DNA of 2,234 nucleotides from Escherichia coli (GCF_003334255.1 NZ_QOWU01000139.1); one strand, 5' to 3'. Positions 273 through 658 are shown, numbered from the stretch's first letter. Translations and numbers: made by a program. Notes: generated from the letters alone by a model not told the origin.

Positions 273-410
273 GGTGTGGCCTCTTTGCTAGTAAGTTGTG
301 AAAACTCACCATCCAGAGCTGCGAAACTGTGGGTGGCGAGACGTACGAGGTTCGCAGTACCGGCTAGCAAAGAACCCGGCCCGACCGAAGTCGGCCCCGT
401 ACGCCCCGCC

Positions 411-439
411 ATAATTCTGACGCGAAAAAGACGTGGCAA
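411..439 (-). promoter_or_regulatory. Candidate sigma70 promoter for the 73-aa gene (minus strand)
   Basis: Read on the minus strand: -35 TTGCCA (439..434), a 17-nt spacer, then -10 AATTAT (416..411). The match to consensus is only moderate and the transcription start is not verifiable from sequence. Confidence 0.25.
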
Positions 440-446
440 TACAGTA

Positions 447-477
447 CGCACAAAAAAACCGCTGGCGCGGTTGTGCG
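447..477 (-). terminator. Intrinsic-terminator-like hairpin with a U-tract, oriented for minus-strand transcription
   Basis: Inner stem AACCGC (457-462) / GCGGTT (467-472) with loop TGGC, flanked by an outer CGCAC (447-451) / GTGCG (473-477) pairing. On the minus strand the stem is followed by TTTTTTTG (plus-strand A-tract 452-458). The stem is short at 4 GC pairs plus 2 AU pairs. Confidence 0.35.
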
Positions 478-569
478 CTTTGCTAGTCGGCAGGCTGCGA
501 AACCCGGCACCCGTTTTATGAGGTGCAGCGGAAATGTAACCCGACACGACGAGCGCTGGCAAGCGGTTT

Positions 570-597
570 TTGTGTTGCGTGCTGAAGTATGTATAAT
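570..597 (+). promoter_or_regulatory. Near-consensus sigma70 promoter driving the 659-1126 gene
   Basis: -35 TTGTGT (570-575), 16-nt spacer, perfect -10 TATAAT (592-597). Predicted start near 604, about 55 nt upstream of the ATG at 659. Confidence 0.5.
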
Positions 598-658
598 CGC
601 GGCGCAAAAATGGAATGCGCCGAGGGATAGCGGCGTTTATTAACAATGGAGGTTGTTT

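Follow-up and report, generated by a model that had tools for sequence, protein, structure and literature searches.

The window, a stretch of 2,234 nucleotides of Escherichia coli DNA (GCF_003334255.1, NZ_QOWU01000139.1), lies in the early region of a P2-like (P88/Xuanwuvirus-type) E. coli prophage. It is 99.4% identical to NZ_AP045180.1, where the flanks are the Cox/C/integrase switch and the replication endonuclease, and P2-type capsid and terminase genes are found nearby. An Rfam naRNA4 match (CssrE, 70.2 bits, L001 22304-22382) belongs to the host ytfQ-ytfR region flanking the prophage and is unrelated to the leader described here. Positions are counted from the first letter of the window, and minus-strand features are written from the higher to the lower number.

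The minus strand encodes a 73-aa protein (272..51), homologous to the phage P4 epsilon derepression protein. According to the Pfam search, residues 10-65 match the Derepression family (PF25738, E 2.2e-6), and pairwise BLASTP detected 34% identity to P4 epsilon over 50 aa (E 1e-8). The protein also matches phrog_3688 (E 1e-31) and carries the RefSeq name "derepression protein", while the NCBIfam search returned no family for it. Homology to the P1 Icd protein was considered and rejected: Icd has the same length (73 aa) and position, yet the two proteins gave no alignment at E <= 100. The repressor of the prophage is of the P2 C type, 44% identical over all 99 aa, and P2 C is the target of P4 epsilon. 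Antirepressors of the P4 epsilon family bind the repressor protein, not DNA. The 73-aa protein is a putative antirepressor of the prophage's own P2 C-type repressor. Among related proteins the ends are conserved and the middle (residues ~24-50) is variable, with at least three variants, which assort independently of the specificity type of the C4 RNA described below. The middle of the epsilon-like protein may recognise different C repressor types.

Downstream of the epsilon-like gene, in the same orientation, is the replication endonuclease gene A. The gene directly after the epsilon-like gene encodes 138 aa (phrog_3237) and shares 4 nt with the beginning of the endonuclease gene in L001; the 68-nt gap that precedes it contains an imperfect GC-rich hairpin, CCCGCACCCGUGCGCGGG, at window positions 1-50 on the minus strand. 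Comparison of this gene with P4 orf151 detected no similarity, so the P4 operon was not simply copied. No LexA box, of the kind expected for SOS control as for Tum of phage 186, was found near the leader, and the sole match with three mismatches (1152-1171) is at chance level.

On the other strand, a divergent gene (659-1126) encodes a hydrophobic protein of 155 aa, assigned to phrog_6315, which has no known function. It is preceded by a TATAAT element at 592-597 and a hairpin at 616-636, and it sits between the early genes and the leader promoter. The gene is a variable insert that P88 lacks: of 61 related loci, 13 have it in this slot, five at about 90-99% identity and eight at about 30-39%. 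It could be a moron, or serve in exclusion.

Two short motifs recur in the non-coding DNA upstream of the epsilon-like gene. Exact matches to CTTTGCTAG are found at 283-291 and 478-486 on the plus strand and, inverted, at 364-372, three matches where 0.03 are expected (none of 200 shuffles reached three), and within the 26 kb prophage context this 9-mer occurs at these three places only. The second motif, CTGCGAA, is located at 319-325 and 495-501 (plus strand) and, inverted, at 351-357 (0.47 matches expected; 2 of 200 shuffles reached three). The repeat scan additionally detected AACCCGGC at 373-380 and 501-508; it is the GCCGGGUU arm of two stem-loops, one presenting the a1 site in the IsrK-like RNA and the other presenting b' in C4. 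The initial annotation had described two direct copies and one inverted copy of these motifs, and the copies are real, far above chance in shuffles, with the coordinates given there off by at most one base and the 373-380/501-508 repeat recovered at the same coordinates. It had also joined them into a composite site. The three copies and their orientations hold, but no fixed geometry was found, the start-to-start distance between half-sites being 15 nt in the upstream copy, 15 nt in the inverted copy and 34 nt in the gene-proximal copy. Nor do the copies lie between divergent promoters, as had been supposed: all three are inside a single minus-strand leader, downstream of one conserved promoter.

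We detected this promoter by consensus scan at 562..533, with a -35 element TTGCCA (562..557), an 18-nt spacer and a -10 element TACATT (538..533), and the predicted start is at ~526. In 64 related loci the A-tract with TTGCCA and the GGTTACA.T element are invariant and the spacer is variable. The position of the promoter corresponds to P1c4/P51b of P1 and to PLE of P4. A second promoter-like site on the minus strand, at 439..411 (TTGCCA-17-AATTAT), was not counted as a promoter: roughly half of the related loci have TCGCCA as its -35, and its "-10" corresponds to the conserved AAUUAU directly 5' of mature C4.

The first part of the predicted transcript (526..452) matches the IsrK family, which is similar to P4 seqA, over all model positions (Rfam RF01394, 1-77/77; 64.3 bits with a gathering score of 50; E 6.5e-13). 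Its layout is a first hairpin, a second hairpin with the a1 site (UUCGCAG, 501..495) in the loop, a linker with the b1 site (CUAGCAAAG, 486..478), and then an intrinsic terminator. The a1 and b1 sites are complementary to segments a' and b' of C4, respectively. The terminator, found by terminator scan at 472..452, reads AACCGC GCCA GCGGUU followed by U7, and its helix is 99.5% paired and nearly invariant among related leaders. Promoter-like and terminator-like sites of the IsrK-like RNA are thus both present and conserved, as predicted from sequence. Folded alone, the IsrK-like segment was no better than shuffles (z -0.6). The c4-a1b1 motif (Rfam RF03163) reached 19.9 bits in the window (E 0.053), under its gathering score of 46.7; this weak match overlaps the IsrK-like stretch, which the isrK model describes better.

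Further downstream, at 416..329 on the minus strand, we detected a gene for C4 antisense RNA, matching Rfam RF01695 at 82.8 bits (gathering score 45, E 3e-16, model positions 1-87/87) and scoring 99.2 bits with the covariance model R1 built in this analysis. By homology with the annotated 77-nt C4 of P1, the mature RNA probably extends from ~410 to 332. The minimum free energy (MFE) fold of C4 is identical to the Rfam consensus (-47.7 kcal/mol, z -4.8): a closing stem P1 encloses hairpins P2, with a UUCG tetraloop, and P3, and the P3 loop and the 3' junction are unpaired. The scaffold helices are 100% paired in 34 relatives. The segment b' (CUUUGCUAG, 372..364) is the loop of P3 and the segment a' (CUGCGAA, 357..351) is the single-stranded 3' junction, so that the inverted motif copy is exactly the two unpaired segments of C4.

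The gene-proximal motif copy contains the two target sites. The a2 site (UUCGCAG, 325..319) begins 4 nt past the end of C4, and the b2 site (CUAGCAAAG, 291..283) overlaps the Shine-Dalgarno sequence AAGAGG (285..280) of the epsilon-like gene, the AUG of which is at 272..270. The predicted b'-b2 duplex is 11 bp long (-15.2 kcal/mol) and spans the AAGAG of the Shine-Dalgarno. The target leader folded alone was not significant against shuffles (z -1.6). In addition, a terminator-like hairpin can form at 340..301 as an alternative to C4, with the 3' strand of C4 stem P1 (340..334) pairing to 311..305, a2 in the loop and UUUU following at 304..301; the hairpin and folded C4 are mutually exclusive. 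In 11 diverse leaders (P88-type, lambdoid, P1 and P4) pairing in the hairpin reaches 93.9%, against 32-52% in slid controls, and at 6 of its 9 pairs both partners have changed. It is present in the MFE structure of the full leader and may be an attenuator or a 3'-end-forming element; an overlap of this kind with C4 is mentioned by Weinberg 2010. In the MFE structure of the whole 272-nt leader, a1/b1 pair with a'/b' in cis (z -4.1); this does not demonstrate C4 unfolding, since the method cannot represent loop-to-strand pseudoknots.

The protein-based search of viral contigs detected 61 loci encoding an epsilon-like protein, and our covariance model found C4 in 61 of 61, usually ending 56 nt before the ATG. 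The same leader with the same gene, at 81-91% identity, is found in phage P88, other Xuanwuvirus phages and Citrobacter phage Shae_phiSM. In many lambdoid and Stx phages the leader occurs without the epsilon-like gene (~70% identity), in front of antirepressor genes. An isrK-like element precedes C4 in all nine comparison phages (P1, P4, five lambdoid/Stx and two P88-like), and the common order is the isrK-like element, C4, two downstream sites and the Shine-Dalgarno. In the early region of P2, C4 and isrK are both absent.

The related loci were used to examine motif conservation and covariation, the check that the initial annotation had proposed, and the sites were found to vary in concert, with compensatory changes in all four inter-segment helices. 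Pairing statistics were calculated for 34 distinct P88-type leaders. The a'-a2 helix is 100% paired, and in 4 of its 7 pairs both partners have changed; the corresponding values are 95.8% and 6 of 9 pairs for b'-b2, 98.7% and 4 of 7 for a1-a', and 99% and 7 of 9 for b1-b'. The covariation score of the inter-segment helices was matched by none of 500 shuffles, and pairing falls to ~40% when the partner is slid by 1-3 columns. The six short segments occupy 18% of the alignment columns but account for 53% of the entropy and supply 27 of the 30 most variable positions, in contrast to the nearly invariant C4 scaffold. A U-C mismatch between b2 and b' was found in 12 cells. The overlap of b2 with the Shine-Dalgarno was observed in every locus examined.

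The 34 leaders contain 6 a-types and 13 b-types in 22 combinations, showing that the a and b modules reassort. Across 71 loci we counted 28 b'/a' combinations, with a1, b1, a2 and b2 tracking a' and b' at fixed positions. Mean predicted duplex energies were -23.7 kcal/mol for cognate versus -10.5 for non-cognate pairs, and the cognate target was the best one for 22 of 22 types. The C4 type of P88 (CUGUAGUUG/GUGGAAA) is non-cognate to the window. The exact b'+a' segment of the window was found in 9 loci when viral contigs were searched; each of these is P88-type and has an epsilon-like gene, and the exact specificity was not found in viral contigs outside the P88-type family. Wobble pairs as a test of the strand gave 13 G-U versus 5 A-C, a weak asymmetry with few counts, and the strand is therefore assigned from the covariance models together with the promoter, the terminator and the Shine-Dalgarno position. 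The a1/b1 match is broken in a few loci (L020, L019): at L020 222-483 the upstream a1/b1 are of another specificity type than the C4 and a2/b2 of that locus, a sign that recombination may have taken place between leader and C4, and at L019 1245-1506 the a1 site has two mismatches. The a1/b1 pairing is thus not indispensable.

Taken together, the region is very probably an IsrK/C4-type antisense RNA immunity cassette in the leader of a P2-like prophage operon, and as such it adds one more case of a known mechanism rather than being a group of protein-binding sites. An IsrK-C4 immunity system is already on record for P4, P1, P7, N15 and lambdoid prophages. One close counterpart is the immI operon of P1/P7 (Citron and Schuster 1990; annotated in NC_005856), comprising the c4 antisense RNA, icd and ant. 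The P1 record annotates a1, b1, C4, a2 and b2 and gives binding at b2 as repressing icd/ant translation; characteristic of C4 RNAs is excision (by RNase P and others) to a stable ~77-nt RNA that represses antirepressor synthesis in trans. According to a proposal of Citron and Schuster, a1/b1 compete with a2/b2. The window shares with P1 the promoter, a1/b1, C4, a2, b2 over the ribosome site and a small first gene, as well as the RF01695 fold with a' in the 3' junction, b' in the P3 loop, a2 right after C4 and b2 at the Shine-Dalgarno. As in P1/P7, specificity differs between phages of the window type (heteroimmunity). Unlike P1, the regulated protein is epsilon-type rather than Ant-type and has no similarity to Icd, and the phage itself is a P2-like myovirus equipped with a C/Cox switch. 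The upstream element of the window is above the isrK threshold, whereas that of P1 is under it and matches c4-a1b1 instead (51 bits).

P4 immunity involves pairings of seqA, the CI RNA and seqC, leading to premature transcription termination before the replication genes. The window resembles P4 in having an isrK-like leader, a C4-family RNA, complementary sites on both sides, an epsilon-family gene in the same operon and replication genes downstream. The differences are in arrangement and sequence: in the window the epsilon-like gene directly follows C4, whereas in P4 another ORF comes first after the CI RNA and epsilon lies ~250 nt beyond; the spacer from the leader terminator to C4/CI is 35 nt in the window versus 107 nt in P4; the 34% identity of the epsilon proteins is limited to 50 aa, and the genes after epsilon are unrelated. 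The first P4 ORF after the CI RNA (L010 4359-4420) starts with GGAGGCUGCCAUCAUGGCUAC (MATT...), which is nearly the same as the Shine-Dalgarno and start of the lambdoid antirepressor genes (MATI/MATV..., L004-L008). The P4 leader thus resembles the lambdoid type more than the P88 type, despite the epsilon family shared by P4 and P88-type phages.

In the Salmonella prophage Gifsy-1, the short IsrK RNA activates antirepressor translation by pairing with a C4-like segment (Hershko-Shalev et al. 2016, PMC4825925), which is processed to a ~80-nt RNA. Hfq binding of IsrK and trans activation of downstream translation were reported in the same work, which treats the C4-like segment as an ORF. Like the IsrK/orf45 (STnc1160)/anrP arrangement, the window is predicted to give a short terminated leader as well as a longer read-through form; a conserved RNA further downstream is complementary to this leader, and by analogy the cassette would control antirepressor translation. 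Lambdoid leaders of the Gifsy-1 kind are ~70% identical to the window over isrK and C4. The regulated genes differ, with an AnrP/Rha-type antirepressor coupled through orf45 in Gifsy-1 and the Shine-Dalgarno of the epsilon-like gene itself being the b2 target in the window.

Based on these systems, we propose the following mechanism. The promoter at 562..533 would start the minus-strand transcript, the first 75 nt of which would form the IsrK-like RNA with a1 and b1, ending at the terminator; read-through of the terminator would be needed for C4 and the mRNA. C4, probably cut out of the leader as in P1 and P4, would expose b' in a hairpin loop and a' in the junction of a stable three-helix RNA, and these segments would pair with b2 and a2 immediately downstream. 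Since b2 overlaps the Shine-Dalgarno, C4 would block translation of the epsilon-like gene at b2, as in P1/P7, and replication gene A is possibly affected too, via polarity or premature termination. In this way, neither the lysogen nor incoming phages that share its RNA type would express the antirepressor. The a1/b1 sites most likely serve as a decoy (anti-antisense) for C4, in cis or as a short terminated RNA in trans, which would free the ribosome site when the balance shifts, as in Gifsy-1 IsrK. The epsilon-like protein would then act on the prophage's own C repressor. The processing, the translational block and the decoy role are transferred here from P1, P4 and Gifsy-1, and the outputs of these model systems differ: translation is blocked in P1, transcription ends prematurely in P4, and IsrK acts as an activator in Gifsy-1.

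With regard to the output, C4 may act mainly as in P4, pairing with a1/b1 and a2/b2 of the nascent transcript and causing premature termination, so that the operon (epsilon, orf138, endonuclease A) would be shut off chiefly by termination and less by a translational block. We consider this possible but rather unlikely. P4 has the same isrK-like and C4 arrangement, with CI pairing to seqA/seqC terminating transcription before the replication genes, and in the window replication gene A is downstream in the same orientation. The conserved terminator-like hairpin and U-run between C4 and b2 have compensatory changes across the family, which makes a termination component plausible. However, the U-run is short (4 U), the position of b2 over the Shine-Dalgarno in every locus points to translational control, and a translational block is still compatible with these data because lost translation can itself cause polarity.

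A purely cis-acting switch, in which the inverted copy would pair within its own mRNA to hide or expose the Shine-Dalgarno with no trans-acting RNA, is improbable. It would agree with the cis pairing of a1/b1 to a'/b' in the MFE structure of the 272-nt leader, and translation in Gifsy-1 is controlled by a similar cis structure, but the C4 scaffold is very stable and nearly invariant, and C4-family RNAs of P1/P7 and P4 are documented to be processed into stable RNAs that act in trans, with a ~80-nt RNA seen in Salmonella. Moreover, many specificities are a prediction of trans-acting immunity, whereas a pure cis switch needs no difference between phages.

The motif copies had initially been explained as operator sites for a small regulator, possibly the adjacent Arg-rich 73-aa protein, or as recombinase or replication-initiator sites, and this explanation in terms of DNA operators or iterons (for the 73-aa protein, the prophage repressor, a recombinase or an initiator) is largely refuted and has a very small residual probability: repeats in two orientations near promoters are typical of operators, and their concerted change could in principle follow a co-evolving DNA-binding protein, but the inverted copy falls exactly on the unpaired loop and junction of an RNA scoring 82.8 bits, the half-site spacing is not constant, a and b half-sites recombine freely with each other among the types, experiments led to the annotation of the corresponding P1 sites as RNA targets, the 73-aa protein is in the epsilon antirepressor family, which binds the repressor protein and not DNA, and the motif type is uncoupled from the sequence of the 73-aa protein. 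The window and L011 encode identical 73-aa proteins with different a and b motifs, and the motif set of the window also occurs with proteins only 67-77% identical; the 73-aa protein therefore does not read the motifs. What had been offered as a fallback, RNA pairing of the inverted copies with sequestration of the Shine-Dalgarno, is in essence right given the compensatory changes in related loci, and the placement of copy 1 over the Shine-Dalgarno of the 73-aa gene is borne out by b2 running into AAGAGG. The fallback found the pairing and missed that the inverted copy is a known antisense RNA gene and the upstream copy an IsrK/seqA-type RNA.

In the literature searched we found no paper on C4 in P88-like phages, and none linking an IsrK-C4 cassette directly to an epsilon-type gene in a P2-family phage; the combination of this cassette with an epsilon-type antirepressor in P88-like (Xuanwuvirus) phages appears to be undescribed there. 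The analysis adds two RNA genes that RefSeq and phage records lack. In P88 a hypothetical protein, SF19_gp13 (L003 1555-1743), is called on the opposite strand over isrK and C4. Several lambdoid "antirepressor/Rha" CDSs (L004 1146-2297, L005 1141-2292, L006 1458-2120) are extended in frame upstream through isrK and C4; the AUG linked to the Shine-Dalgarno sits after b2, inside these over-extended CDSs, and the open frame is curious. The CDSs overlapping the RNA genes are probably mis-annotations.

We tentatively hypothesise, as a conjecture that could well prove wrong, that the P88-like IsrK-C4 cassette is a hypervariable RNA "barcode" made of two modules. Its a-types (at least 6) and b-types (at least 13), which reassort and are each changed in concert at three places, would provide an RNA-based second immunity specificity over the epsilon-type antirepressor and, through polarity, over gene A. 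Competition among co-resident P2-like phages and P4-like satellites with the same kinds of cassette and derepression protein would drive its diversification. If true, this would suggest a shared origin of the P4 immunity-plus-epsilon module and the module of the helper-type phages.

A speculative operator array is thus replaced by a specific, testable RNA mechanism. The modular concerted variation at three sites is the most interesting by-product of the analysis: it illustrates the evolution of immunity specificity, and the 22 or more co-varying specificity types are a ready set of orthogonal RNA-RNA pairs. For the biology of the family, the results show that P2-like E. coli prophages of a widespread group with a P2 C-type repressor carry their own putative epsilon-type antirepressor behind a probable C4 lock, which would be relevant to prophage induction and to dealings with P4-like satellites that use epsilon on the same kind of repressor.
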